A stretch of DNA of 64,000 nt, taken from Coriobacteriales bacterium (GTDB taxonomy: Bacteria; Actinomycetota; Coriobacteriia; Coriobacteriales; CADBOM01). The stretch lies in NCBI GenBank assembly GCA_050946275.1, contig JBMNUM010000003.1, forward strand, positions 17,170 to 81,169, read 5' to 3'. The first letter of the stretch is position 1. Every line of letters begins with the position of its first letter. A program made the translations under genes and the position numbers. The notes below the pieces were generated by a model, which was given only the letters and a program-made list of their open reading frames with translations, searched no databases and was not told the origin of the DNA. Positions 3,215-54,934 of the stretch are shown piece by piece.

Positions 3215-3342
3215 GCACCTCCCAGGCGACATGCGCGCCCGTTGCGCGGACACGCGATTCGGCCGCACCGCCGTGGTGCGGGCGCCGTCTTTGCGAAACC
3301 TGGTACGGCTGCCCTCGTCAGGGCTTCGAGAAGCACTAGCAG
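3215..3342 (-). promoter_or_regulatory. candidate ykkC-type (guanidine-I-like) riboswitch leader of sugE
   Basis: The minus strand reads GCUAGUGCUUCUCG...CAGGUUUCGCAAAG...ACCACGGCGG...GCCUGGGAGG. The blocks are in the same order as the guanidine-I blocks CUAGGGUUCCG / CUGGUCCGAGAG / ACACGGCGGGA / GCCCGGGAGA, and the last block overlaps the SD. The match is divergent and there is a roughly 38 nt insertion in the 3' part. The SugE context supports the call. Confidence 0.35.
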
Positions 3343-33899: not shown

Positions 33900-33928
33900 A
33901 TGAGTCAAAGGATTGTCCTTCGACTCAT
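33900..33928. repeat. hairpin repeat family B, subtype b (ATGAGTC-AAAGGA..TCCTT-CGACTCAT)
   Basis: atgagtcaaaggattgtccttcgactcat lies directly after cbiG. Confidence 0.85.
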
Positions 33929-34026
33929 TTTCTACCGTTGCATTTGCAACCGACTGCCACGCCGCTCGTGCATATACTTATATAAATAGGCGCGAGGGTA
34001 CGAGACAGAAGGGCGGCCGGATAGTC

Positions 34027-34794
34027 ATGGCGAGCGTATCTGGTAAGTGGGAGCTGTACGATCGATTAATCGAGGGCGTACCCGCTGGCATCGGGGTTCT
34101 CGATTGCTGCCTGGGCCTGCACTGGTCGTACGTTGAGGCCGAGTGCGGGATGGGCATCAGCCACACGCTGCGCGATGGGGCCCGCGCATCGAGCGGGGCA
34201 GACCCGCGCGAGCTCGACCTCAAATCGCTGTGCGCTCTCGCCAAGTCGTGGAACTTCACCGAGGCGACGCTCGGCGTGGCGGCGCTCAACGCGTGGTACA
34301 CCCAGCCGGAGCGCATCGAGGCGCTCGGCGGATCGTGGGACGACGAAACGGAGTCCGGCAAGGGGAGCAACCCGTTCTGGTCGATGCGGGATCGATGCAC
34401 CGGCAAGAAGGTCGCGATCATAGGTCACTTCCCGAACGTGAACGCCATGGCGCAGATAGCCGACGTCACCGTGCTCGAGCGCAACTGCTCGTCGGGACTC
34501 GACACGCCCGACTCCGCGTGCGAGTACATCCTGCCCGAGCAGGACTACGTGATGATGACGGGAACGACGCTCACGAACAAGACGATGCCCCGGCTGCTCG
34601 AGCTCTCGAGCGACGCGGTCGTGGTCGTGACGGGTCCCTCGGCGATTCCCGCGCTCCCGATGGCCGAGGCAGGCGTCGACATCATCGCCGGCAGCATGGT
34701 CGCCGACCCCGAGCTGGCCGCGTGGGCAATCCGCAGCTACACGAAATCCGTCTGGCGAGGCGGCATCCGCAAGTTCTTCTTGGAGTTCGCGTAG
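34027..34794 (+). CDS. DUF4213/DUF364 (Rossmann-like, putative heavy-metal chelation) domain protein
   Basis: The N-terminal LIEGVPAGIGVLDCCLGLHWSYVEAECGMGISHT fits the DUF4213 pattern. The C-terminal KKVAIIGHFP...MTGTTLTNKT fits DUF364. Confidence 0.72.
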   Translation: MASVSGKWELYDRLIEGVPAGIGVLDCCLGLHWSYVEAECGMGISHTLRDGARASSGADPRELDLKSLCALAKSWNFTEATLGVAALNAWYTQPERIEALGGSWDDETESGKGSNPFWSMRDRCTGKKVAIIGHFPNVNAMAQIADVTVLERNCSSGLDTPDSACEYILPEQDYVMMTGTTLTNKTMPRLLELSSDAVVVVTGPSAIPALPMAEAGVDIIAGSMVADPELAAWAIRSYTKSVWRGGIRKFFLEFA

Positions 34795-35284: not shown

Positions 35285-35371
35285 GGAGAGGGATTTGGAA
35301 GAAAGGGAGGGTCGCGATCGGAAAGTTAACTTGCGTGTTTTAGGTAGTATCCGTTTAGGATGGAGGTAGAA
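35285..35371 (+). promoter_or_regulatory. conserved 5' leader of MFS cassette 1
   Basis: ggagagggatttggaagaaagggaggGtcgcGatcggaaagttAacttgcgtgttT... is almost identical to 46789-46850. It ends in a small hairpin (ATCC/GGAT) abutting the SD GGAGG. Confidence 0.55.
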
Positions 35372-36664
35372 ATGACTACTGAAGTCAACTCTGGTGCTTC
35401 TCTGCAAGTGCCGAAGATGGGCAAGGGTGCCTGGGCGGTCATGATTTCCGTCTGGATCGTCGGCATCGTGCTCGCCATCGCACAGTACAAGGCCATGGCT
35501 ACCACGACGTACATCGCCGAGGACATGGGCCTGACGGCCTCCGAGGCTGGTTGGATTTCCGGCGTTTTCACGTTCACCGGCATCATCCTGGCCTTCCCGG
35601 CTGCTAACGTTCTCAAGAAGCTCGGCCCGAAGATGTCGCTGATTCTCTCCTGCGCCTTCGCCATCGTCGGTGGCGTGATCGGCTTCTTCGCCGCTGGCTA
35701 CGTCCCGATGCTCATCTCCCGTGTCATCGAGGGTATCGGCCTCAGCTTCGTCGGTGTCGTCGGTCCTGCGACGATCGCCATGTGGTTCCCGATCGAGAAG
35801 CGCGGTCTGCCGATGGGCATTTGGTCCAACTGGCAGATGGTCGGTATCTCGATCTGCTTCTACAGCAGTGCTCCGATGACCATGGCCTGGAGCTGGCGCT
35901 CCCTGTGGCTGTTGGGCGTCGTCTGCTGCATCATCGGCCTGGTTCTGGCCGCTATCGTCGTCAAGGCTCCGCCCAAGGAGTTCAACCATGCTGACGTCCA
36001 GGACGAGGGCACCAAGCTCACCAAGGTCTTCAGCATGCGCGATGTCTGGCTGGTCGCTCTGGCCGGTCTGGCCTTCGGTCTGTCCAACTCCGTCGTCATC
36101 CAGTGGGTCGCTCCGTACTGGATCAACAACACTGGCATGGATCCCGGAATGGCCGGTAACCTCACTGGTGCTCTGTTCACGACTGAGTGCGTGTTCACCA
36201 TCATCTTCGGCTTCATCTTCAACAAGATGAAGAGCCGCAAGAAGGCCATCGTTATCGACTCCGCTCTGTACTCGGTGACCTTCCTGGTTATCTTCTCGAT
36301 GACCAACGTCCCGGCAGCTATCTTCTCGCTGTTCTTCTATGCTATCGTCGAGGCCTTCTTCTGCATGGCCATGTGGACCCTCGTCGGCCAGACCGTCACG
36401 GATCCGCGTGTCGCCGCTGGCGCGATCGCCCTCTACACGATCATGATTGACGTTGGAATGTGGCTCGGCCCGATCTTCTCCGGCATGATCCTCGACCACG
36501 CTGCCGTGGCGGCTGGCGTCGATCCCACCGGTGGTGCCGGTGCTGGCGTGCCTGGCGCGTTCTTCGGCGTCATGTGCTTCACCATCGCCGCTCAGGTCGT
36601 TGCGACCATCGCTTGGGGCCTCCTGAGGCTCTACAACGAGCAGGGCGAGAGGGTCAAGATGTAA
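35372..36664 (+). CDS. MFS transporter (paralogue 1), substrate unknown
   Basis: About 12 TM segments and an MFS loop motif (LKKLGPKMSL; EKRGLPMG). The start was chosen at the second ATG, 5 nt after GGAGG. About three-quarters of residues are identical by eye to 46879-48168. Confidence 0.85.
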   Translation: MTTEVNSGASLQVPKMGKGAWAVMISVWIVGIVLAIAQYKAMATTTYIAEDMGLTASEAGWISGVFTFTGIILAFPAANVLKKLGPKMSLILSCAFAIVGGVIGFFAAGYVPMLISRVIEGIGLSFVGVVGPATIAMWFPIEKRGLPMGIWSNWQMVGISICFYSSAPMTMAWSWRSLWLLGVVCCIIGLVLAAIVVKAPPKEFNHADVQDEGTKLTKVFSMRDVWLVALAGLAFGLSNSVVIQWVAPYWINNTGMDPGMAGNLTGALFTTECVFTIIFGFIFNKMKSRKKAIVIDSALYSVTFLVIFSMTNVPAAIFSLFFYAIVEAFFCMAMWTLVGQTVTDPRVAAGAIALYTIMIDVGMWLGPIFSGMILDHAAVAAGVDPTGGAGAGVPGAFFGVMCFTIAAQVVATIAWGLLRLYNEQGERVKM

Positions 36665-39736: not shown

Positions 39737-41119
39737 ATGCGCGCGTCGATTCCCCGATTCATGATCGCCGCGCCCTCGAGCGGGGCGGGCAAGACCACCG
39801 TGGTGGTCGGGCTCCTGCGCTGCCTGGCGCGGCGCGGGCTCGACGTGCGCGCGTTCAAGTGCGGACCCGACTACATAGACTCGATGTTCCACGAGACGGT
39901 GCTGGGCATCCCGTGCGGCAATCTCGACCTGTTCCTCTCGACGCCCGATGAGGCGCGCGCCCTGCTCGCGGAGCGGGTGGCTGGCGCCGACCTCGCGCTC
40001 GTCGAGGGCGTGATGGGGTTCTACGACGGCATCGGCGGCACGAGTGACGAGGCCTCGTCGTATGCCGTTGCGACCGCCACGGACACGCCGGTCGTGCTCG
40101 TGGTGGACGGCTCGGGCGTGTCGCTCACGCTCGCGGCCGTCGTGGGCGGTATCCGGGAGTTCCGCGCCGATTCGCACATCGCCGGCGTGATCGTCAACAA
40201 ATGCAGGAAGGGCGTGTTCGACATGCTCGCGCCGGTCATCGAGGCCGAGTGCGGCGTGCCCGCGCTCGGCTACGTGGAACGCGACGATGCGATCGCGCTC
40301 GAGAGCCGTCACCTGGGGCTCGTCACAGCCGCCGAGGTCGAGGACCTGCAGGAGCGGGTCGACGCCCTGGCCGATGCCCTGGAGCGGACGGTCGATGTCG
40401 ATGCGCTGCTCGCGCTGGCGGGCACGGCGCCCGATGTGGAGTGCGAGCCGGCGGCAGTCGCGCCGGCGTGCGAGCCGGACGGATGCACGATTGCGGTCGC
40501 CCGCGACGAGGCGTTCTGCTTCTACTACGACGAGAGCCTCGAGCACCTGCGGAGGCTCGGCGCTCGGCTCGCGTTCTTCTCGCCTCTGCGGGACGAGGCC
40601 CTGCCGGCCGATGCCGACGCACTCTACCTCGGCGGCGGCTACCCCGAGCTGCATGCGGCCGAGCTCGCTGCAAACGAGCCGATGCTCGTCGCGGCCCGCG
40701 CGGCGCACGCGGCCGGTATGCCGGTCTTCGCCGAGTGCGGCGGCTTCCTCTATCTCAAGGAGTGGCTGGAGGACGTCGAGGGAACGCGCTGGCCGATGGC
40801 GGGCATACTCGCCGGTGGCTCGCGCTACACCGGCAAGCTCTCGCGTTTCGGTTACATCGAGATGACTGCGCGGAATGGGGGCATGGGCATCGCCGCGGGC
40901 GACGCGCTCCGCGCGCACGAGTTCCACTACTACGACAGCGACGACAACGGCTCCGCGTTCCGTGCCGAGAAGCCGCGCTCCGCCCGGGCGTGGGATTGCA
41001 TGGTGGTTCAGCCGCGTCTCGTCGCCGGTTTCCCGCACCTGTACCTGCCGTCGTGCCCGGACTTCGCGCGCGGGTTCGTCGAGGCGGCCCTCGCGTATCG
41101 CGGAGAGCGCCGCGCATGA
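39737..41119 (+). CDS. cbiA: cobyrinate a,c-diamide synthase
   Basis: P-loop APSSGAGKTTV, FKCGPDYID, and a C-terminal glutamine amidotransferase with ECGGFLYL. Confidence 0.9.
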   Translation: MRASIPRFMIAAPSSGAGKTTVVVGLLRCLARRGLDVRAFKCGPDYIDSMFHETVLGIPCGNLDLFLSTPDEARALLAERVAGADLALVEGVMGFYDGIGGTSDEASSYAVATATDTPVVLVVDGSGVSLTLAAVVGGIREFRADSHIAGVIVNKCRKGVFDMLAPVIEAECGVPALGYVERDDAIALESRHLGLVTAAEVEDLQERVDALADALERTVDVDALLALAGTAPDVECEPAAVAPACEPDGCTIAVARDEAFCFYYDESLEHLRRLGARLAFFSPLRDEALPADADALYLGGGYPELHAAELAANEPMLVAARAAHAAGMPVFAECGGFLYLKEWLEDVEGTRWPMAGILAGGSRYTGKLSRFGYIEMTARNGGMGIAAGDALRAHEFHYYDSDDNGSAFRAEKPRSARAWDCMVVQPRLVAGFPHLYLPSCPDFARGFVEAALAYRGERRA

Positions 41120-42093
41120 CCATCGCGTTCAACATCACGGCCGCCTGCCTCATCGGCTTCGTGCTGGACCTGGTGCTCGGCGAGCGCCTGCCCGCCGCAT
41201 CGCCGGCCGTGCTGTTCGGGAAGCTCATCGCCGTGCTCGAGAAGGCGCTGCGGGCGATCTTCCCCAAGTCGAAGACGGGTGAGCGCATCGGCGGCACCGT
41301 GCTCGTCGTGATCGTGTGCGCCGTCGCGTTCCTCGGCAGCATGCTCGTGCTGTGGGTATGTTGGCTCGCGCATCCGATCGCCAACCTCGCCGTGCAGGCG
41401 TTCGCGTTCTACATGATCATGGCGACGCGCGGGCTACGTGATGCGAGCATGAAGGTCTATCGTGCGCTGAAAGCGCGCGACCGCGATGCAGCGCGCGCTG
41501 CGGTGGGCGAGATCGTCGGCCGCGACACGGCGCGCCTCGGCCCGGCGGGCGTGACCCGCGCTGCGGTCGAGACGGTCGCGGAGAACACGAGCGACGGAGC
41601 CATCGCGCCGCTGTTCTACTTCCTCATTGGAGGCGCTCCGCTAAGCCTGCTCTACAAGGCGATTAACACGATGGATAGCATGCTCGGCTACCGTAACGAG
41701 CGCTACCGGTACTTCGGCACGGCTGCGGCGCGCCTCGACGATGTGGCGAACTTCATCCCCGCGCGCCTCGCCGCGCTGCTGCTCGTGGCGGCCGGGTGGC
41801 TCCTACGCTATGACGCCCGTGGTGCCGCGCGGGTCTGGCGCCGCGACGCCCGTAAGCACGCCTCGCCCAACGCCGGGCACTGCGAGGCCGCGGTGGCCGG
41901 CGCGCTCGGCGTGCAGCTCGGCGGCGACGCGGTCTATTTCGGCGAGCTCGTCCACAAGGAGACTCTCGGCGACCCAACGCGGCCCATAGCCGCAAGCGAC
42001 ATCCTCCGCGCGAACCGGCTGCTCTACGCTTCCACCACGCTCTGCTGCGCCATCGGCCTCGCCGTGCGCATCGCGCTCATGATTCTTCTGTAG
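41116..42093 (+). CDS. cbiB: adenosylcobinamide-phosphate synthase (membrane protein)
   Basis: AENTSDGAIAPLFYF, MLGYRNERY and SPNAGHCEAAVAGALGV are characteristic CbiB/CobD blocks. Confidence 0.9.
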   Translation: MTIAFNITAACLIGFVLDLVLGERLPAASPAVLFGKLIAVLEKALRAIFPKSKTGERIGGTVLVVIVCAVAFLGSMLVLWVCWLAHPIANLAVQAFAFYMIMATRGLRDASMKVYRALKARDRDAARAAVGEIVGRDTARLGPAGVTRAAVETVAENTSDGAIAPLFYFLIGGAPLSLLYKAINTMDSMLGYRNERYRYFGTAAARLDDVANFIPARLAALLLVAAGWLLRYDARGAARVWRRDARKHASPNAGHCEAAVAGALGVQLGGDAVYFGELVHKETLGDPTRPIAASDILRANRLLYASTTLCCAIGLAVRIALMILL

Positions 42094-43579: not shown

Positions 43580-44482
43580 CTACGACCTCGGGCCGTACAC
43601 GTACACCTCGTGAATCTCGTGGTCGTAGCCGTCGTAGAAACCGACCGGCATGCCCTGCACGATCTTCGCGCCACGGTTGTAGAGCACGAGCATCTCGCCC
43701 GAGTCCTCATCGAAGGTCAGTCCCTCAATCTCGCCCTGGAGCTGGACGTCGTCGAGCGTCTTCGCGGGCACGACCTCCACCTCGGTTGCCCCGTCGGCGA
43801 GCTCGAAGCGGTACGCGTGGTCGGGGGCGTTCTTGTCAGCGTCGCCGTCATCGGCGGTGACGTAGTAGCCGCCATCGTGGTAGGCGATTCCCTGAATCCA
43901 CTTGGGGGCGGGGGAGAGGAGCACCTTGCCCAGGTACTCACCCGACTCGAGGTCGTAGTTGTAGATATACTCGCCGGTGTCGGTCCATGCGCACATCGAG
44001 ACGACCTTCGTGTCGGGGTTCACGCAGATGCCGCTGCACTCGTCCTGTCCGCTCTCCTTATCGAAGTTGAATGTGCGCTTGAGCTGCAGCGTGTCGCCAT
44101 CGTAGACGGCGATCTGGATGTTCGAGGCGACGCCGTCCTCGAACAGCTCCACGCCGCAGTACACCTCGTTGTCGTGCACGTCGATGTCGCCGATGTGGTT
44201 CACCTCGAGTTCGTAGCCCTTCTCGAAGGGGGAGTCGTTCGTCGCGACGAGGTTCCAGTCCTTGTCGTATTTGGAGAGCGTGGTCGAGCCGCTCACCCAG
44301 TAGCTTCCGTTCTCGGCCGCAACTCCCTGCCGGCCGTCGACCTCCACGACCTTCGCCAGCTCTCTCGACTCGTCGTTTCCGCTCTCCGCCGAACCGGCGT
44401 CCTGCGCGCAGCCTGCCAAGGGCAAGACCAGGACCAGCGAGGCGGCGACGGCGATCAATGCGTTCCTGAGTTGCTTGTTCAT
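43580..44482 (-). CDS. lipoprotein of unknown function, repetitive beta-strand (propeller-like) pattern
   Basis: The signal peptide has the lipobox LPLAGC. Short motifs of aromatic and Asp residues recur (YWVSG, VYCGVE, IAVYDG, ICVNPD, IYNYD, GIAYHDGGYYVTADDG, IEGLTFD). It is the only minus-strand gene inside the cbi locus. Confidence 0.7.
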   Translation of the reverse strand: MNKQLRNALIAVAASLVLVLPLAGCAQDAGSAESGNDESRELAKVVEVDGRQGVAAENGSYWVSGSTTLSKYDKDWNLVATNDSPFEKGYELEVNHIGDIDVHDNEVYCGVELFEDGVASNIQIAVYDGDTLQLKRTFNFDKESGQDECSGICVNPDTKVVSMCAWTDTGEYIYNYDLESGEYLGKVLLSPAPKWIQGIAYHDGGYYVTADDGDADKNAPDHAYRFELADGATEVEVVPAKTLDDVQLQGEIEGLTFDEDSGEMLVLYNRGAKIVQGMPVGFYDGYDHEIHEVYVYGPRS

Positions 44483-44593
44483 CGGGGTTTCCCTTCCATA
44501 ATTGCCTGCTGGCGCGAAGGCCGTTGGTGCAGAGGCACTCAATGTGCGCTAAAGGCATCGTACACCAGATACGGCGCTGGCATCATCCGTCAA

Positions 44594-46788: not shown

Positions 46789-46878
46789 GGAGAGGGATTT
46801 GGAAGAAAGGGAGGTTCGCTATCGGAAAGTTGACTTGCGTGTTCTAGGTAAGTGTTCCTTGCAGGAATGGAGGTAGAA
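46789..46878 (+). promoter_or_regulatory. conserved 5' leader of MFS cassette 2
   Basis: Near-identical to 35285-35346. Its SD-proximal hairpin TTCC/GGAA (46855-46867) replaces ATCC/GGAT of copy 1, so the change is compensatory. Confidence 0.55.
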
Positions 46879-48168
46879 ATGACTACAGAAGTCACTGGCT
46901 CTGGAGTCCAAGTCCCGAAGATGGGCAAGGGCGCATGGGTAATCGCGATCACCGTGTGGATCATCGGTATCGTGCTCGCCATCGCCCAGTACAAGGCCAT
47001 GGCGACGACGACGTTCATCGCCGAGGACATGGGCCTGACGGCCACCCAGGCTGGTTGGATTTCCGGTATCTTCACGTTCACCGGCATCATCCTGGCCTTC
47101 CCTGCCGCAGGTATTCTCAAGAAGCTCGGTCCGAAGATGGCCCTGATCCTCTCCACCGGCTTCGCGGTCGTCGGCGGCATCGTCGGCTTCTTCGCTCCCG
47201 GCTTCGCTCCGATGATCGCCTCCCGTATCGTCGAGGGTGTCGGCCTCGGCCTCGTCGGCGTTGTCGGCCCGGCCACCATCGCGATGTGGTTCCCGATCGA
47301 GAAGCGCGGTCTTCCGATGGGCATCTGGTCGAACTGGCAGACGGTCGGTATCTCGATCTGCTTCTTCACCTCGGTCCCGATGACCATGTCGATGGGCTGG
47401 CGCTCGCTGTGGATCATGGGCGTCATCTGCTGCGCCGTTGGTCTGATTCTGGCCGCGATTATCGTTAAGGCTCCGCCCAAGGAGTACAACCATGCCGACG
47501 TCCAGGACGACGATGCCAAGCTCTTCAAGGTCTTCGGCATGCGCGACGTCTGGCTGGTCGCCCTGGCCGGTCTGGCGTTCGGTCTCTCGAACTCCGTCGT
47601 CATCCAGTGGGTTGCCCCGTACTGGATCAACAACACCGGCATGGATCCCGGACTTGCCGCCAACATGACCGGCATCCTGTTCACCATCGAGAGTGTCTTC
47701 ACCATCGTCTGGGGTGTCGTGTTCAACAAGATGAAGTCCCGCAAGAAGGGCATCGTTACCTTCTCCGGCCTCTATGCCGTTAGCTTCATCTTCATCTTCT
47801 CCACGAGCACGGTTTCTCTTGCCTGGGCTTCGATGTTCTTCTATGCCATCGTCGAGGCGTTCTTCATCATGGCGATGTGGACGCTCGTCGGCCAGACCAC
47901 TCCCGACCCGCGCGTTGCGGCTGGCGCGATGGCCGTCTACACGATCGTGGTTGACCTCGGCATGTGGCTCGGCCCGATCTTCTCCGGCATGATCCTCGAC
48001 CACGCTGCTATCGCGGCTGGTATCGATCCCACCGGTGGTGCAGGTGCTGCCGTGCCCGGCGCGTTCCTCGGCTGCATGGCCTTCTCCGTGACCTTCCAGG
48101 TCATCGCGACGATTGCCTGGGCGGCTCTGAGGCTGTACGACGAGCAGGGCAATAGGGTCAAGATGTAG
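46879..48168 (+). CDS. MFS transporter (paralogue 2), substrate unknown
   Basis: Collinear with 35372-36664 and shares the same N-terminus MTTEV and C-terminus RLY(N/D)EQG(E/N)RVKM. Confidence 0.85.
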   Translation: MTTEVTGSGVQVPKMGKGAWVIAITVWIIGIVLAIAQYKAMATTTFIAEDMGLTATQAGWISGIFTFTGIILAFPAAGILKKLGPKMALILSTGFAVVGGIVGFFAPGFAPMIASRIVEGVGLGLVGVVGPATIAMWFPIEKRGLPMGIWSNWQTVGISICFFTSVPMTMSMGWRSLWIMGVICCAVGLILAAIIVKAPPKEYNHADVQDDDAKLFKVFGMRDVWLVALAGLAFGLSNSVVIQWVAPYWINNTGMDPGLAANMTGILFTIESVFTIVWGVVFNKMKSRKKGIVTFSGLYAVSFIFIFSTSTVSLAWASMFFYAIVEAFFIMAMWTLVGQTTPDPRVAAGAMAVYTIVVDLGMWLGPIFSGMILDHAAIAAGIDPTGGAGAAVPGAFLGCMAFSVTFQVIATIAWAALRLYDEQGNRVKM

Positions 48169-48351: not shown

Positions 48352-48999
48352 ATGGCCGACGTGGAGCGGGTGCTTCCCGCCGACATCGAGCGGCGGAGCA
48401 TGGAGATCATCGACGCCGAGCTTGCCTCGCGCGGCATCGTGCTCGATGTGCGCAATGCGGCCGTCGTCAAGCGCGTCATCCACACCTCGGCGGACTTCGA
48501 CTACGCGGGTAACCTGCGCTTCTCGCCCGGTGCCGTCGATGCGGGCGTCACCGCGCTCAAGGCCGGCGCGACCATCCTCACCGACACGAACATGGCCCGC
48601 GCGGGCGTGAGCAAGCCGGCGCTCGCCAAGCTCGGTGGTGACGTCGTCTGCTACATGGCCGACGAGAACGTCGCCCGCACCGCCCGCGAGCAGGGCACAA
48701 CGCGCGCCGTCGCCTCCATGGAAAAGGCCGCCCGCACACTCGATGCGCCTGTCGTCGCCATCGGGAATGCGCCCACCGCGCTCATCCATCTCGTCGAGCT
48801 CATCGACGCCGGCGCCATCGCGCCGCGGCTCGTCATCGGCGTCCCCGTGGGGTTCGTGAACGTCGAGGCGAGCAAGGAGCTCATGATGGAGCGCGCCGAC
48901 GTACCGTGGATCGTCGCGCGCGGCCGCAAGGGCGGCTCGAACATAGCGGCCGCCATCTGCAACGCGCTGCTCTACGAGGCCACGGGCCGCCAGTTGTGA
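48352..48999 (+). CDS. cbiC: cobalt-precorrin-8 methylmutase
   Basis: VIHTSADFDY, ILTDTNM, AIGNAPTAL, PVGFV and GGSNIAAA are hallmark CbiC/CobH blocks. Confidence 0.92.
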   Translation: MADVERVLPADIERRSMEIIDAELASRGIVLDVRNAAVVKRVIHTSADFDYAGNLRFSPGAVDAGVTALKAGATILTDTNMARAGVSKPALAKLGGDVVCYMADENVARTAREQGTTRAVASMEKAARTLDAPVVAIGNAPTALIHLVELIDAGAIAPRLVIGVPVGFVNVEASKELMMERADVPWIVARGRKGGSNIAAAICNALLYEATGRQL

Positions 49000-49109: not shown

Positions 49110-50156
49110 ATGACCCCAGAGGTTCCAAGCGATATCAGGAGGCGCAAGCGCACGCGGTACACGGTCGCGTTCGTTGTGCTCGCCGTGCTGCTGCTCGTGT
49201 TCCTGGTGCTCAACATCTGCCTCGGCAGCGTGGGCGTGCCGCTCCCGGACGTGCTCGCGGCGCTCTCGGGCAGCTCGGCGGACGAGCTCTCCCGTGACAT
49301 CGTGCTCAACATGCGCTTCCCGCGCGCCGTCGCCGCCATCATCCTCGGCGGGGGCCTGTCGCTCGCCGGCTACCTGCTCCAGACGTTCTTTCACAACCCC
49401 ATCGCCGGCCCGTTCGTGCTCGGCATCTCGTCGGGCGCGAAGCTCATCGTCGCCATCGTGATGGTGGTCTTCCTCGGCGCGGGCATCCACATCGGCTCGG
49501 TTGTCATGATCCTCGCCGCGTTTGCGGGTGCGATGATGTCCATGGGCTTCGTGCTGCTCGTCTCCAAGCGCATCCCGGGCATGGCCATGCTCATCGTCGC
49601 CGGCATCATGATCGGTTACATCTGCTCGGCCATCACCGACTTCGTCATCACCTTCGCGGACGACTCCGACATCGTGAACCTACACAACTGGTCGCTCGGC
49701 AGCTTCTCGGGCATCACGTGGGGCAACGTCGGCGTGATGGCCGTCGTCATCCTCGCCGCCACGGTGTGCGTGTTCCTGCTGGCCAAGCCCATCTCGGCCT
49801 ATCAGCTTGGCGAGAACTACGCGGAGAGCCTCGGCGTTAACATCAAGCGCTTCCGCGCGCTGCTCGTGCTGCTGTCTAGCCTGCTCTCCGCCTGCGTGAC
49901 GGCGTTCGCCGGCCCCATCTCGTTCGTGGGTATCGCCGTGCCGCAGCTCGTGAAGAACATCTTCAAGACCTCCCGACCGCTGCTCATGGTCCCCGCGTGC
50001 TTCGTGGGCGGAGGCGTCTTCTGTCTGTTCTGCGACCTGCTCGCGCGCGTGGCCTTCGCGCCCACGGAGCTCTCCATCTCGACCGTGACGGCGATCTTCG
50101 GCGCACCCGTCGTGATCTGGGTGCTGTTGCGCCGCAAGAAGGGGAGGGTGGAGTAG
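49110..50156 (+). CDS. FecCD-family ABC permease (BtuC / iron-siderophore/cobalamin type)
   Basis: 348 aa with about 9-10 TM segments. It shows the FecCD signature region and a C-terminal GAPVVIWVLLRR. Confidence 0.9.
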   Translation: MTPEVPSDIRRRKRTRYTVAFVVLAVLLLVFLVLNICLGSVGVPLPDVLAALSGSSADELSRDIVLNMRFPRAVAAIILGGGLSLAGYLLQTFFHNPIAGPFVLGISSGAKLIVAIVMVVFLGAGIHIGSVVMILAAFAGAMMSMGFVLLVSKRIPGMAMLIVAGIMIGYICSAITDFVITFADDSDIVNLHNWSLGSFSGITWGNVGVMAVVILAATVCVFLLAKPISAYQLGENYAESLGVNIKRFRALLVLLSSLLSACVTAFAGPISFVGIAVPQLVKNIFKTSRPLLMVPACFVGGGVFCLFCDLLARVAFAPTELSISTVTAIFGAPVVIWVLLRRKKGRVE

Positions 50157-51014
50157 ATGTCCGAGCGCTTCCCGACACCCGGGCTGGAACGCTCCCCCGA
50201 GGACCGTTCCAATTGGAACGCTCCCCCGAGGAGCGTTCCAGAACCCTACTTCCGCACCGAGGGCCTGGCCGTGGGCTACGATGGCAAGCCGCTCATCTCC
50301 GGCATCGAGATGAACGTCGAGCGAGGCGAGATCCTCACGCTCATCGGACCCAACGGCGGCGGCAAGTCGACGATCCTGAAAAGCATCACCGGGCAGCTCG
50401 AGCCCATCGCCGGCACCGTGTTCCTCGGCGGGCGCGATATGCGGGCGATCGACCGCAAGGAGCTCGCGCGCGAGATGGCCGTCATGCTCACGGAGCGCAT
50501 CAGCCCCGAGCTCATGACGTGCGCGGATGTGGTCGGGATGGGTCGCTATCCCTACACGGGCAGCCTCGGCATCCTCGCGGAGGAGGATCACGCGATCGTG
50601 CTCGAATCGATGGAGGCCGTGCACATCGCCGACCTCGCGGAGCGCGACTTCACCGCCATCAGCGACGGCCAGCGCCAGCGTGTCATGCTTGCGCGCGCCA
50701 TCTGCCAGCAGCCCGAGCTCATGATCCTCGACGAGCCCACGTCGTATCTCGACATCCGCTACAAGCTCGAGCTGCTCGCGACGCTGCTCGACATGTCGCG
50801 CGACCGCGGCCTCACCGTCATCATGTCGCTGCACGAGATCGACCTCGCGCAGCATGTCTCCGACAAGGTCATGTGCGTCGCCGAGGGTCGCATCGACCGT
50901 TTCGGCACGCCCGACGAGGTGTTCACCCCGGGCTACATCGACCGCCTCTACGGTCTCACGGTCGGCTCTTACGACGAGGCGACCGGTCACGTCGAGCTCC
51001 CCATCCGGAGATGA
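50157..51014 (+). CDS. ABC ATPase of the FecE/BtuD type with a repeat-encoded N-terminal extension
   Basis: Walker A GPNGGGKST, the signature-like SDGQRQR and Walker B LMILDEPTSYLD are present. The ATG abuts the permease stop. Codons 10-28 are encoded by two family A palindromes. Confidence 0.88.
   Translation: MSERFPTPGLERSPEDRSNWNAPPRSVPEPYFRTEGLAVGYDGKPLISGIEMNVERGEILTLIGPNGGGKSTILKSITGQLEPIAGTVFLGGRDMRAIDRKELAREMAVMLTERISPELMTCADVVGMGRYPYTGSLGILAEEDHAIVLESMEAVHIADLAERDFTAISDGQRQRVMLARAICQQPELMILDEPTSYLDIRYKLELLATLLDMSRDRGLTVIMSLHEIDLAQHVSDKVMCVAEGRIDRFGTPDEVFTPGYIDRLYGLTVGSYDEATGHVELPIRR
50184..50241. repeat. two tandem REP-like family A palindromes inside the coding sequence
   Basis: ctggaacgctcccccgaggaccgttccaa plus ttggaacgctcccccgaggagcgttccag. 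Confidence 0.85.
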
Positions 51015-51021
51015 GCCGACC

Positions 51022-51128
51022 ATGTCAAATGCGTGTCAAATGGACAGGTCATTTGACACGCTGTCACGGAAGTCGCCCGGTCACTTGCGTGACAGTAGCC
51101 GTGTCAAGTGACCTGTCCATTTGACACG
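51022..51128. repeat. nested-palindrome repeat family C (complete copy)
   Basis: The arm cgtgtcaaatggacaggtcatttgacacg, the core ctgtcacg...cgtgacag, and the inverted arm cgtgtcaagtgacctgtccatttgacacg. Each arm is itself a hairpin (gtgtcaaat/atttgacac). Confidence 0.85.
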
Positions 51129-51159
51129 GGTCCGTTTGTCTACTCGTGGTACGATGGGT

Positions 51160-51330
51160 TCGCATACAGGTAATGGCTAGGCGGAGCCGCCTGCTCGCAG
51201 GCGGGGCCGGACCGGATGTCCGGCAAGGGGAATGCGGGTGAGAATCCCGCGCTATACCAGTAACCGTAAACGCCGGCGCTGCTGCGCATGGCAAAGTCGG
51301 AATGCCTTTCCGCTGAAACGAGACGCCCTG
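51160..51330 (+). ncRNA. cobalamin (B12) riboswitch
   Basis: CAAGGGGAAUGCGGGUGAGAAUCCCGC (51223-51250) matches the conserved AAGGGAA..GGUGAnAAUCC core. AAGUCGGAAUGCC (51294-51306) resembles the B12 box rAGYCMGgAgaCCkGC. It lies upstream of the cbiK-like operon. The boundaries are approximate. Confidence 0.6.
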
Positions 51331-51583
51331 GGAGATTGTATGGATCTGCAGAGAATCACATCGCCATAGCCTTGCCCATGCGGCCCGTGCCCAGCGCACT
51401 GTCGCCTGGAAGACTCGTCCTCCTGTCGATATGCGCGCTCCAGCGGTTGCGGGTTCGTCATGGAGTCATGTGGAGCGCGGCGTCCCGGCGGGCGTTGCGG
51501 TCGTCGGCGTTTGCCCGGGTGGGGACGCCGTCATCGAGTTGCCCGGATGCGAGGCGTGCGGGCGGAAAGGGAGTGGTTGTTCC

Positions 51584-52516
51584 ATGAAGAAGAAGTTCCT
51601 TGCAGTGCTGGTGGCGGCGCTTGCCGCGGCCCTGTGCGCGTTCGCGCTCGCCGGATGCGGTGGGGCGTCGGACGAGGCCGCTCCCGCCGACGACGCTGCC
51701 GACCAGGCCGCCGTGGCCCCGGCTGGCGATCAGGAGATCATCGTCGTGAGCTTCGGCACGAGCTATCCCGAGACCCGCGCCGCCACGATCGAGGCGGTCG
51801 AGAACTCCATCGCAGCCGCGTTCCCCGAGTGGAGCGTGCAGCGCGCCTTCACCGCGCAGACCATCATCGACAAGGTCGCCGAGAAGGAGGGCGTCGAGAT
51901 CATGAACTTCGAGCAGGCCGTCGATGCCGCCGCCGAGGCAGGCGTCACGAAGCTCGTCGTCCAGCCGACGCACCTCATGAACGGCTACGAGTACAACGAC
52001 GTCAAGGATGCCCTCGACAAGGCCGCGCCGCGCTTCGACCAGGTCGTGCTCGGCGATCCGCTGCTCGGCACCGACGCCGACCTCTCCGCCGTCGCCGAGG
52101 CCATGGTCGAGGCCACCAAGCAGTATGACGACGGCCAGACCGCCATCGTCTGGATGGGCCACGGCACCGAGGCCGACTCCAACGGCGTGTACGCCAAGAT
52201 GCAGGAGGTCATGACCGAGGCCGGCCACGACAACTACTACATCGGCACGGTCGAGGCCACCCCGACGATCGATGACATCCTGACCGCCATCGACGGCAAG
52301 GGCTACACGAAGGTCGTCCTGCGTCCGATGATGGTCGTCGCGGGCGACCACGCCACCAACGACATGGCCGACCCGGAGGATCCCGAGTCCTGGTACAGCC
52401 AGTTCAAGGCAGCCGGTTACGAGGTCGAGGCCGTGCTCGAGGGACTGGGCCAGATTCCGGCCATCCAGGACCTGTACGTCGCCCACGCCCAGGCCGCCAT
52501 CGACAGCCTCCAGTAG
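51584..52516 (+). CDS. cbiK: CbiK-type sirohydrochlorin cobaltochelatase homologue with lipoprotein signal peptide (exported)
   Basis: MKKKFLAVLVAALAAALCAFALAGC is a signal peptide with a lipobox. It is followed by an Ala/Asp/Pro linker and then the CbiK fold blocks (VVSFGTSY, VQPTHLMNGYEY, WMGHGTE, PMMVVAGDHA). Confidence 0.85.
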   Translation: MKKKFLAVLVAALAAALCAFALAGCGGASDEAAPADDAADQAAVAPAGDQEIIVVSFGTSYPETRAATIEAVENSIAAAFPEWSVQRAFTAQTIIDKVAEKEGVEIMNFEQAVDAAAEAGVTKLVVQPTHLMNGYEYNDVKDALDKAAPRFDQVVLGDPLLGTDADLSAVAEAMVEATKQYDDGQTAIVWMGHGTEADSNGVYAKMQEVMTEAGHDNYYIGTVEATPTIDDILTAIDGKGYTKVVLRPMMVVAGDHATNDMADPEDPESWYSQFKAAGYEVEAVLEGLGQIPAIQDLYVAHAQAAIDSLQ

Positions 52517-52611: not shown

Positions 52612-52644
52612 GTGAGTCGATGACGGAGATCGTCATCGGCTCAT
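52612..52644. repeat. hairpin repeat family B, subtype a-like
   Basis: gtgagtcgatgacggagatcgtcatcggctcat has two mismatches between the arms. Confidence 0.7.
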
Positions 52645-52664: not shown

Positions 52665-53705
52665 ATGGAGAAACGAATCAGCTGGTTGAAGGTGATGCTC
52701 GCCGCCGCGCTGTGCGCGTTCGTGATCGCGTGCATGCCGGCCATCGCGCTGGCCGAGGACGAGGCGGCGACGGATGCCGAGCCGGGTGTCGCGAAGGCCG
52801 ACGACTACGGAGAGCGCGAGGAAGTCGGTGCGGACAACCTCGTCCCGATCACGCCCGACATGCTCCCGGACGGCACGTACGACCTCACGGCCGACACCGA
52901 CTCGTCGATGTTCAAGATAACGAAGTGCGAGGTGACCGTCGCCAACGGCGAGATGACCGCGGTCTTCACGCTCGGCGGCACCGGCTACGAGCGCCTCTAC
53001 CGAGGCGAGGGCAAGGATGCCCTCAAGGCCGACGCGTCCGAGTACGCTGAGGCGGTCGAGGATGCCGACGGCGCCTACACCTACACCATGAGCATCCCCG
53101 CGATCAACTACCGCATGGACGTCAGCGCGTTCAGCAAGCGCAAGCAGCTTTGGTATGACCATACCGTCGTGATCGACCCGGCGGGTCTGCCCGAGGGCAC
53201 CATCATGATGGGCGCGTACGCTCCCGAGGCCGGCGACCCGTTCAAGGCCAAGAGCGCCTACACCAAGCTCGAGGACGGCATCTACACGATGGAGGTCGAG
53301 CTCGCCGGCGGCACCGGCAAGGCGTCGATCACCTCTCCGGCCTATGTGAAGGTCGAGGACGGCCATCCGGTCGTCTCGCTCGAGTGGAGCAGCCAGAACT
53401 ACGACTACATGATCCTCAACGGCGAGAAGTACCTGCCGGTCGAGCGGGATAAGAAGAACTACTTCGAGCTGCCGATCATGGTGTTCGACGAGCCGATGGA
53501 CGTCATCGCCGACACGACGGCCATGAGCCAGCCGCACGAGATCGCCTATCAGCTCACCTTCAAGGAGGACACGGCCGTCAACGCCTCCCAGGGCATCCAT
53601 GTCCCGTCCAAGGTGGTGTTCCTGGTCATCGTCGTCTTCGCCGCCGTCATCCTCCTGCTCTTCCGCTCGAGGATGCGTTCTGCCAGTGGCAAGGCCAGAC
53701 GCTGA
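52665..53705 (+). CDS. secreted, C-terminally membrane-anchored protein with two internal beta-rich repeats; function unknown
   Basis: The signal peptide is MEKRISWLKVMLAAALCAFVIACMPAIALA. Two DGxY-initiated repeats are present (DGTYDLTADTDSSMFKITKCEVTVANGEM... and DGIYTMEVELAGGTGKASITSPAYVKVEDGH...). The C-terminal TM segment VVFLVIVVFAAVILLLF is followed by a basic tail. The SD AAGGAG lies at 52654. Confidence 0.7.
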   Translation: MEKRISWLKVMLAAALCAFVIACMPAIALAEDEAATDAEPGVAKADDYGEREEVGADNLVPITPDMLPDGTYDLTADTDSSMFKITKCEVTVANGEMTAVFTLGGTGYERLYRGEGKDALKADASEYAEAVEDADGAYTYTMSIPAINYRMDVSAFSKRKQLWYDHTVVIDPAGLPEGTIMMGAYAPEAGDPFKAKSAYTKLEDGIYTMEVELAGGTGKASITSPAYVKVEDGHPVVSLEWSSQNYDYMILNGEKYLPVERDKKNYFELPIMVFDEPMDVIADTTAMSQPHEIAYQLTFKEDTAVNASQGIHVPSKVVFLVIVVFAAVILLLFRSRMRSASGKARR

Positions 53706-54934
53706 TGCCGATCGTCCGGACAAGGACAAACGCGAGGGGGCACGCGCGCCGCACGCTGGTGGCGCGCGTGCCCTTGCTCTTGTGCGCCCTCGCGCTGGCC
53801 GCGCTGCTCGCCGGGTTTGCCACCGGGTGCTCTGCCGGCGGTGCGCAGGGTGAGGGGGCCGGCCACGACTGGGACGTGAGTCCCTCGCTCGTGCTCGTCG
53901 AGGTGGAGGAGCCGGAGTATGCGACAGGCTTCGCCATCGGCAGCTACGAGGGCGGCTACGAGCTCATCGACATCGTGGGGGAGGGCCGCTTCCTCGTGGT
54001 GCCCGAGGGCGCTGCCGTGCCGGACGACCTCGCTGAAGACGTTGTCGTCCTCCGGCGGCCGCTCGACCGCATCTACCTCGTCGCTTCTGCGACCATGGAC
54101 ATGTTCCGCTCGCTCGACGCGATCGACGCCATCCGCCTCTCCGGCACGAAGCAGGGCGACTGGCACATCGCCGAGGCGGCCGATGCCATGGCCTCCGGCG
54201 CGATCGTCTATGCGGGCAAGTACAACATGCCCGATTACGAGCGCATCCTCGCCGAGGAATGCGACCTGGCGGTCGAGTCGACGATGATCTACCACAACCC
54301 CGAGGTGAAGGAGGCGCTCGAGGGCTACGGCATCCCCGTGCTCGTCGATCAGTCGAGCTACGAGAACGAGCCGCTCGGGCGCATCGAGTGGGTGAAGGTC
54401 TACGGTGCGCTGCTCGGCAAGAAGTCCGAGGCCGATGCCGTCTTCGAGGAGCAGCGGGCGCTGTTCGACGCGGTGGTCGCCGACTCGCAGGACATGGCGG
54501 AGCGCAAGTCGGTCGCGTTCTTCTACATCACGGCCAACGGGAGCGTGAACGTTCGCAAGGCCGACGACTACGTGCCCAAGATGATCGAGCTCGCGGGCGG
54601 TTCGTACGCGCTGACGGAGCGCGGCGACCCCGACTCGGCCTCGAGCACGGTCGGCATGCAGATGGAGGAATTCTACGCGGCGGCCAAGGATGCGGACTAC
54701 ATCCTCTACAACTCGACGATTGCCGGCGAGGTTGAATCGCTCGACGAGCTGCTCGACAAGTCGGAGTTCCTCGGCAGGTTCAAGGCCGTGTCCGACGGCA
54801 ACGTCTGGTGCGTCACGCAGAACATGTACCAGGATTCGATGGAGCTCGGCGCCTTCATCTCCGACGTCCACAAGATTCTCGTCGACCCCGCCACCCCCGA
54901 CGACCAGCTCACCTACATGAAGCGCCTGACCTGA
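53705..54934 (+). CDS. ABC substrate-binding lipoprotein, Peripla_BP_2 (BtuF/FhuD-type) family
   Basis: It has a signal peptide with lipobox FATGC and the typical RIYLVASATMDM...YAGKYNMPDYERIL... pattern. The ATG overlaps the preceding stop. Confidence 0.85.
   Translation: MPIVRTRTNARGHARRTLVARVPLLLCALALAALLAGFATGCSAGGAQGEGAGHDWDVSPSLVLVEVEEPEYATGFAIGSYEGGYELIDIVGEGRFLVVPEGAAVPDDLAEDVVVLRRPLDRIYLVASATMDMFRSLDAIDAIRLSGTKQGDWHIAEAADAMASGAIVYAGKYNMPDYERILAEECDLAVESTMIYHNPEVKEALEGYGIPVLVDQSSYENEPLGRIEWVKVYGALLGKKSEADAVFEEQRALFDAVVADSQDMAERKSVAFFYITANGSVNVRKADDYVPKMIELAGGSYALTERGDPDSASSTVGMQMEEFYAAAKDADYILYNSTIAGEVESLDELLDKSEFLGRFKAVSDGNVWCVTQNMYQDSMELGAFISDVHKILVDPATPDDQLTYMKRLT

Follow-up and report, generated by a model that had tools for sequence, protein, structure and literature searches.

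What does a two-repeat surface protein do when its gene lies between a chelatase-like gene and a gene for a BtuF-class substrate-binding protein (SBP)? The question is raised by a stretch of 64,000 nucleotides from a Coriobacteriales bacterium (contig JBMNUM010000003.1, positions 17,170 to 81,169 of the forward strand), hereafter referred to as the window, in which an open reading frame (ORF) for a protein of 346 amino acids (aa) is found in that position. As described below, the protein is a strongly diverged member of the NEAT group that carries two NEAT domains in tandem, and it represents neither a new fold nor a new domain family. The finding is real, and proteins of this kind are widespread and unannotated. 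We consider it likely that the tandem-NEAT protein serves as a surface receptor or relay for corrinoids and feeds a BtuFCD-type importer in monoderm gut anaerobes. If so, it probably belongs, as a component not described so far, to the machinery used by Gram-positive gut bacteria to capture B12-type cofactors.

The layout of the gene and its product, with the AlphaFold2 (AF2) model as one of the sources, is as follows:

52665..53705, + strand: gene of the tandem-NEAT surface protein, 346 aa, made of signal peptide, acidic linker, NEAT-like domain 1 (D1), linker, NEAT-like domain 2 (D2) and transmembrane (TM) anchor.
52665..52754, + strand: predicted Sec signal peptide, residues 1-30, with predicted cleavage at ALA/ED (...AIALA/EDE), from sequence and an AF2 helix at residues 2-22.
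52845..53180, + strand: D1, approximately residues 61-172, NEAT fold, SSSSMF lip and KxxxY (hhalign and HMMER against IsdX2-NEAT5; predicted local distance difference test score, pLDDT, of 97-98).
53265..53582, + strand: D2, approximately residues 201-306, NEAT fold, GGxGKAS lip, WSSxNYDYM and DTTAMSxPHExxY (Pfam NEAT; homology to D1).
53607..53687, + strand: TM anchor, residues 315-341, and basic tail (AF2 helix 315-341).

The ORF runs on the + strand from an ATG at 52665 to a stop codon at 53703-53705. An alternative ATG exists at 52620; the start at 52665 was preferred because an AAGGAG Shine-Dalgarno sequence lies 7 nt 5' of it. To examine conservation, an alignment of 119 family sequences was used, which is also the basis for the profiles of the two halves and for the AF2 model. 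A hydrophobic N-terminal stretch is present in 115 of the 119 relatives, and a C-terminal hydrophobic segment in at least 102 under a strict rule, with about five Lys or Arg residues after the segment. In the protein of the window, the tail that follows the helix reads RSRMRSASGKARR. None of the 119 relatives has an LPXTG motif. The first-pass annotation, made by eye from the sequence of this stretch, had proposed a signal peptide and a C-terminal anchor with a basic tail, and sequence, AF2 helices and survey of relatives agree with it. A match to the NCBIfam model lipo_FMN_PplA was rejected, as it scores 14.6 bits against a cut-off of 325 and spans the signal peptide and the linker.

The internal repetition of the protein is too diverged for pairwise comparison. 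When one half was compared with the other using BLASTP, the E value was 2.0, which is not significant. Profile-profile comparison of D1 and D2 with hhalign does detect homology, with a probability (Prob) of 97.7% and an E value of 8.5e-12 over 103 columns at 18% identity, and for this reason the repeat is accepted as real. Its register (DGTYDL../DGIYTM.. and GYERLY/NYDYMI) is the one that had been drawn by eye. The AF2 model has a mean pLDDT of 86.7, and each half forms an all-beta sandwich of its own, with pLDDT mostly above 90 (strands of D1 between residues 70 and 171, strands of D2 between residues 205 and 306); a helix at the N-terminus and another at the C-terminus are also predicted. 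The two repeats described by eye are thus confirmed.

What fold these sandwiches have was answered by comparison with solved structures. A Foldseek search of the PDB returned 13 matches at E ≤ 1e-3, and all of them are NEAT proteins (IsdH-N2N3, IsdB, IsdX1 and IsdX2-N5). The two-domain structures IsdH-N2N3 and IsdB align over approximately 313-343 columns with E values from 3e-7 to 3e-5, while the single domains IsdX1 and IsdX2-NEAT5 give TM-scores of 0.64-0.70 normalised to the target. Shp is a weak match, found at rank 41 with an E value of 0.026. At the sequence level, the D1 profile matches the full domain of IsdX2-NEAT5 (hhalign Prob 92.6%, E 4.4e-7) and also its PDB entry 4h8p in a HMMER search (E 0.0046). 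Pfam NEAT (PF05031) matches residues 201-298, in D2, over model positions 2-116 of 119 with an E value of 0.014; the score of the window protein, 16.3 bits, is below the gathering threshold of 32.8 bits. Among the 119 relatives, 86 match Pfam NEAT weakly at E < 0.01, the best with an E value of 1.7e-9, and some database relatives already bear a precomputed PF05031 label. Full-length searches of PDB sequences, with the single sequence or with the profile, gave nothing relevant, and matches to ribosomal protein L6 with E values around 1 were dismissed as chance.

Foldseek matches restricted to NEAT proteins, together with the sequence evidence, therefore identify a diverged tandem-NEAT protein. 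A resemblance to NEAT-like beta-sandwiches had been guessed from the sequence, and the guess was right. Two other families suggested at that time, HtaA (PF04213) and DUF4430 (PF14478), do not match the window protein at E ≤ 1 and are not among the families matched by the 119 relatives. Weak Pfam matches to Big_13 and DUF4397 occur in a few family members.

Given that the fold is NEAT, we asked how the residues that bind haem in this fold are replaced. In classical NEAT domains such as those of IsdA, IsdC and IsdX, strand beta-8 carries a YxxxY motif whose first Tyr is the iron ligand and whose second Tyr is hydrogen-bonded to the first. In D1, K160 and Y164 align with Y114 and Y118 of IsdX2-N5, and KxxxY is thus found in place of YxxxY. 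K160 is kept in 114 of the 119 sequences and Y164 in 118, and Y72, S80, M82, F83, Y108 and W163 are invariant. The lip of D1, S78-S-S-S-M-F83, has the form SxxxxF compared with the S/YxxxxY motif of the 3-10 helix, and its loop is 2 residues shorter than that of IsdX2-N5.

In D2, the profile alignment with D1 puts H291 and Y295 (HxxxY) at the YxxxY positions. P290, H291, E292 and Y295 are present in every one of the 119 sequences, and M287 in all but one; the codons are nt 53535-53537 for H291 and nt 53547-53549 for Y295. The lip, GGxGKAS, is 5-6 residues shorter than in IsdX2-N5. Compared directly with IsdX2-N5, the D2 profile is aligned with confidence over the N-terminal 39 columns only (Prob 37%). 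As judged from the family alignment and the comparison with IsdX2-N5, the canonical haem motif YxxxY is present in neither D1 nor D2, and SxxxxY appears to be altered or lost.

If the protein belongs to the NEAT group and lacks the haem-ligating YxxxY, what might its ligand be? The surroundings of the gene are informative in this regard. The elements of the window that are relevant for the discussion are the following:

49110-50156, + strand: FecCD-type permease (Pfam FecCD 4.5e-80).
50157-51014, + strand: ATP-binding cassette (ABC) ATPase (Pfam ABC_tran 2.4e-30).
51210..51315, + strand: aptamer of an AdoCbl-II (class II cobalamin) riboswitch (Rfam RF01689, 44.2 bits against a gathering threshold of 36.5, full model 1-81, E 2.4e-07 for the whole window).
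51581..52516, + strand: CbiK-fold lipoprotein (Pfam CbiK PF06180, E 1.2e-77; chelatase domain from residue 52).
53705..54934, + strand: BtuF/FhuD-class substrate-binding lipoprotein, lipobox ..FATGC (Pfam Peripla_BP_2 PF01497, E 9.5e-29).

The neighbours named in the first-pass annotation, cbiK and the SBP gene btuF, are borne out by Pfam, with CbiK upstream and a Peripla_BP_2 protein downstream. The riboswitch is found between the ABC ATPase gene and the cbiK-like gene, ahead of the unit formed by the cbiK-like, tandem-NEAT and SBP genes. The SBP gene begins with an ATG that overlaps the tandem-NEAT stop codon, an arrangement that indicates translational coupling. The FecCD permease and the ABC ATPase (49110..51014) presumably constitute the membrane importer. 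In the window they lie upstream of the riboswitch, while in 78 of 80 other loci they lie downstream of the SBP gene. At Rfam gathering thresholds, no second riboswitch was detected upstream of the cbiC or FecCD genes of the window. In the interval from the ATPase stop codon to the riboswitch, a near-perfect hairpin of about 105 nt is found at 51028-51132, with a minimum free energy of -75.4 kcal/mol (z = -10.4 compared with shuffled sequences); it could be a terminator or insulator between two transcription units, or a repeat element. Matches of the hairpin to plant microRNA-precursor models occur on both strands and reflect the long inverted repeat only.

Because it carries a lipoprotein signal, with a lipobox, MKKKFLAVLVAALAAALCAFALAGC (..FALAGC), the CbiK homologue encoded upstream is predicted to be exported; judging from its sequence, it is a lipoprotein of the cell surface and not a cytoplasmic biosynthetic enzyme. 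Its nearest solved structures are Salmonella CbiK (1qgo, 3.9e-44), the surface protein FetB of Porphyromonas gingivalis (9b86, 5.6e-41) and the periplasmic CbiK of Desulfovibrio vulgaris (2xvx, 1.2e-37). Residues H194, E225 and H257, which correspond to H145, E175 and H207 of Salmonella CbiK, are invariant in 80 of 80 exported CbiK homologues. A canonical lipobox was detected in at least 67 of 79 CbiK homologues, and most of the remainder have another kind of signal peptide. Cobalt and manganese chelatase activity has been reported for FetB (PMC13065792).

How general is this association? Relatives of the tandem-NEAT protein are abundant: a word-indexed search gave 1,262 matches, and 2,590 representatives of 50%-identity clusters were found at E ≤ 1e-3, 971 of them at E ≤ 1e-30. 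The carriers amount to at least 560 species-representative genomes and are mostly Lachnospiraceae, Ruminococcus, Oscillospiraceae and Enterocloster, with additional cases in Coriobacteriales and in two metagenome-assembled genomes (MAGs) of Treponema. Among the cultured carriers are [Clostridium] asparagiforme DSM 15981 (locus L053), Enterocloster lavalensis (L066), Ruminococcus flavefaciens 007c (L049) and Eubacterium sp. MSJ-21 (L035). All the database names that were inspected read "hypothetical protein".

For comparison of gene order, 80 species-representative loci were searched by tblastn with the proteins of the window. In 78 of them the genes follow the order CbiK, tandem NEAT, SBP (Peripla_BP_2), FecCD, ATPase. 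Directly 5' of cbiK, Rfam detected a cobalamin riboswitch of the RF00174 family in locus L001 and in all 11 of the loci sampled. From these 12 riboswitches an nhmmer profile was made and run over the 80 loci; a same-strand cobalamin riboswitch was found in 72, and the median distance from its end to the CbiK domain match downstream is 366 nt. The eight negative loci include two that are cut just upstream of cbiK (L051 and L054), one that begins at the NEAT gene (L076) and one without a cbiK match (L058). The idea that the protein might represent a new corrinoid- or tetrapyrrole-binding family has thus fared unevenly: a role in the handling of such compounds is favoured by the upstream cobalamin riboswitch, whereas the domain is diverged NEAT and not a new family.

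Two kinds of natural fusion tie the three extracellular proteins (CbiK, tandem NEAT and SBP) together. In one kind (P0185, P0227 and P0098) a lipoprotein CbiK is fused to NEAT2; in the other (P0139 and P0155) a lipoprotein NEAT2 is fused to Peripla_BP_2, and the junction contains neither a TM segment nor a lipobox. Another candidate NEAT2-SBP fusion, P0130, was discounted because the TM anchor and the SBP lipobox are intact at the junction; read-through or a frameshift probably accounts for this artefact.

Giant relatives were also detected, such as P0121 (1,965 aa) and P0236 (2,538 aa), with up to nine modules that resemble D1 or D2; some of them end in a Peripla_BP_2-like region. Some of the D2-like copies of the giants lack the His residue, and copies in P0121 read ..GYSAKMNAWITYTV.. 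and ..GMTTAMSAAHEITYTIY.. A further observation concerns loci L064 and L080, which derive from MAGs of rumen Treponema sp. and show the same five-gene order together with a cobalamin riboswitch. As Treponema are diderm spirochaetes, either horizontal transfer from Clostridia or mis-binning of contigs is suggested.

Altogether, a corrinoid role is favoured over a haem role because of the cobalamin riboswitch, the conserved gene order, the CbiK-NEAT2 and NEAT2-SBP fusions and the cbi/cob cluster that surrounds the operon of the window. The following sequence of events can be tentatively proposed. When intracellular cobalamin is low, the riboswitch would permit expression of the operon, and the CbiK-fold lipoprotein, the anchored tandem-NEAT protein and the BtuF-class lipoprotein would come to lie on the external side of the membrane. 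A corrinoid would be captured outside the cell and held in the NEAT-type pocket of D2 by H291 and Y295 of the HxxxY motif, on the strand that carries the Tyr/Tyr ligands of haem in classical domains. Of the two domains, D2 lies closer to the membrane, at about 8 residues from the TM helix. From D2, the corrinoid would be handed to the BtuF-class binding protein and imported by the FecCD permease and its ATPase. D1, which has KxxxY and no axial ligand at the NEAT position, may be a module for capture or docking, like IsdB-N1 and IsdH-N1/N2. The latter domains bind the haem donor, haemoglobin, and not haem itself.

Several observations weigh against this proposal. The NEAT fold and the periplasmic or surface CbiK proteins (D. 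vulgaris CbiK(P) and P. gingivalis FetB) are, to date, associated with haem and porphyrins. Cobalt uptake, too, is among the processes regulated by cobalamin riboswitches, and riboswitch control is therefore not proof that the cargo is a complete cobamide. When six of the eight loci without an nhmmer match (L011, L054, L056, L058, L070 and L082) were rechecked with Rfam, no riboswitch was detected, and five of them are uncut. For the SBP, a search of PDB sequences gave no solved relative indicative of its ligand, even at E ≤ 10. With its nucleotide loop, a corrinoid takes up more space than haem, and the lip loop of D2 is shorter than in haem-binding NEAT domains. Lastly, the correspondence between H291 and the axial Tyr depends on the profile alignment of D1 with D2; direct global alignment of D2 with IsdX2-N5 is weak (Prob 17%) and shifts the register of the His by 2 residues. 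In either register, H291 and Y295 would be located on the same face of the strand, and we infer that H291 occupies the place of the axial Tyr.

A variant of the proposal grants the surface CbiK an active part. The NEAT fold would have been re-tooled, with HxxxY, for cobalt corrinoids, and CbiK would act as a chelatase or dechelatase that inserts or removes metal, or would trim damaged or incomplete corrinoids, before import. Such extracellular processing seems unlikely to us; if true, it would be an enzymatic step in B12 or cobalt metabolism without described precedent. A related explanation, also unlikely, is salvage of cobalt or of incomplete cobalt tetrapyrroles: the surface CbiK would work as a (de)chelatase, and the NEAT protein would shuttle the product to the importer to feed the cell's own B12 pathway. 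The His/Glu/His catalytic triad, invariant in all exported CbiKs examined, fits this explanation, as does the chelatase activity of FetB, although the triad could equally bind a metallated ligand. Control of cobalt import by B12 riboswitches is established. The cbi pathway is present, and neither a cytoplasmic CbiK nor CbiX is seen within the 64-kb window; however, the cytoplasmic chelatase may be encoded elsewhere in the genome. In addition, the operon has no conserved exporter or cobalt-specific component, and we know of no precedent for such a route.

Haem or porphyrin acquisition of the Isd/Cht type deserves consideration too, with the tandem-NEAT protein binding haem or a haemoprotein and passing haem to the Peripla_BP_2 transporter and the surface CbiK acting on haem or porphyrin. 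We find this improbable, even though the fold is NEAT, the conserved His, Met and Tyr residues of D2 are typical haem ligands, haem is also carried by Peripla_BP_2/FecCD importers, and the nearest extracytoplasmic relatives of CbiK bind haem or metalloporphyrins (PMC13065792). Against it stand the cobalamin riboswitch that the window and 72 of the 80 loci have ahead of the operon, the absence of the canonical YxxxY and the apparent absence of SxxxxY, and the position of the operon, which is located within a cbi/cob cluster in the window and has cbiC a few kb away in about 10 other loci. No reason is known to us for B12 to repress haem uptake. No haem oxygenase was found among the conserved neighbours of the tandem-NEAT loci. 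A last alternative, an Ig-like surface protein with a structural or adhesive function that does not transfer any ligand and sits in the operon by chance, would account for beta-sandwich repeats, which are common in adhesins, for giant multi-repeat relatives such as P0121, and for the weak Big_13 and DUF4397 matches. Chance is, however, hard to reconcile with a gene order kept in 78 of 80 species, with fusions to both neighbours, with the overlap between the SBP start and the tandem-NEAT stop, and with polar, ligand-type residues that are invariant in the predicted pocket strand; we regard this alternative as very improbable. Capture and relay of corrinoids thus continues to be our preferred explanation.

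Other features of the region can be briefly described. About 20 kb around the operon of the window make up a cbi/cob cluster that comprises CbiD, CbiG, methylases, CbiB, CobD, CobQ and CbiC. The cbiC gene of the window lies at 48352-48999, and a lone cbiC, encoding precorrin-8X methylmutase, is found a few kb upstream of the cbiK-like gene, on either strand, in about 10 loci (L011, L046, L048, L057, L059, L061, L063, L075 and L083 bear it). A DUF364/DUF4213 gene ('putative heavy-metal chelation') is located inside the cbi cluster at 33913-34794, between cbiG and a gene for a transporter of the major facilitator superfamily (MFS); its product could be an alternative cobalt handler for the cbi pathway. 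Two MFS transporter genes, at 35360-36664 and 46852-48168, are found inside the cobalamin biosynthesis cluster. The CobD/CbiB homologue encoded at 40201-42093 has 630 aa, and its Pfam domain covers residues 317-607, preceded by an N-terminal extension of about 316 aa without assignment. On the opposite strand of the cob cluster, an ORF of 320 aa (43580-44542, - strand) has a coding-like GC content at third codon positions of 0.88 and no Pfam match at E ≤ 1e-5. A Guanidine-III riboswitch was detected at 3279-3339, on the - strand (Rfam RF01763, 37.9 bits against a gathering threshold of 36).

Gut communities are shaped by competition for cobamides, and extracellular capture by Bacteroides, which involves BtuG, BtuH and BtuJ, has been worked out. 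According to a review published in 2026, the equivalent step in Gram-positive Firmicutes "remains entirely uncharacterized" (PMC13616437). The tandem-NEAT family is a concrete candidate for this step. Should D2 bind corrinoids, these would be the first class of ligands other than haem for the NEAT fold, and the relays of monoderms for haem and for B12 would have a common evolutionary root. The function of exported CbiK chelatases also becomes a question again in the light of the finding. In the literature covered, which leaves out most subscription journals, no paper was found on the tandem-NEAT family or its Gram-positive operon, nor any that connects NEAT domains with B12, and a study of corrinoid starvation in Dehalobacter (PMC4285132) mentions neither CbiK nor the tandem-NEAT family.

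Comparison with known systems permits a more precise statement of what is new. In fold and architecture, the closest are the NEAT receptors of the Isd type (IsdB and IsdH of Staphylococcus aureus, IsdX1 and IsdX2 of Bacillus anthracis), which share with the tandem-NEAT protein the eight-stranded beta-sandwich, the presence of tandem domains on one surface protein, an adjacent Peripla_BP_2/FecCD/ATPase importer and, likely, the division of labour between a domain that lacks the motif and a domain that bears it. They differ in the ligand motif, as the YxxxY that contains the axial Tyr is replaced by KxxxY in D1 and by HxxxY in D2, with a lip (SxxxxY) that is reduced in length or missing. Anchoring relies here on a TM helix at the C-terminus and in Isd on sortase and LPXTG; control is exerted by a cobalamin riboswitch here and by iron and Fur in Isd; and the partner is here an exported CbiK homologue. 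The novelty hence lies in a NEAT fold with a different ligand motif, regulation, anchor and partner.

Other tetrapyrrole receptors that are anchored to the membrane and feed a Peripla_BP_2 ABC importer are the HtaA/HtaB proteins of Corynebacterium, with their CR domains, and Shp/Shr of Streptococcus, in which NEAT-type folds use non-Tyr ligands (Met/Met). These systems are haem-specific and iron-regulated, and HtaA PF04213 is not matched by the tandem-NEAT protein. As for the neighbouring CbiK, D. vulgaris CbiK(P) (2xvx) and P. gingivalis FetB/IhtB (9b86) are likewise exported and have the metal-binding His, Glu and His residues; no NEAT partner has been reported for either of them, and the roles proposed concern the handling of haem or porphyrins. 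In Desulfovibrio, a B12 element was described in 2004 that regulates cbiK-cbiL together with btuCDF, again with no NEAT partner reported (PMC545781).

By proposed function, the closest counterparts are BtuG, BtuH and BtuJ of Bacteroides, which operate with BtuB. Like the tandem-NEAT protein, they are anchored extracellular accessory proteins encoded in uptake operons under B12-riboswitch control, in gut commensals that compete for cobamides, and capture of the corrinoid ahead of the transporter would be a common trait if our proposal is correct. No relationship in sequence or fold was detected, however: the tandem-NEAT protein has no Pfam match to DUF4465 or DUF4430, and its fold matches in the PDB are to NEAT only. 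The hosts are monoderm here, so that transfer would proceed to a BtuF-like lipoprotein, whereas in Bacteroides the corrinoid is delivered to a TonB-dependent channel of the outer membrane.

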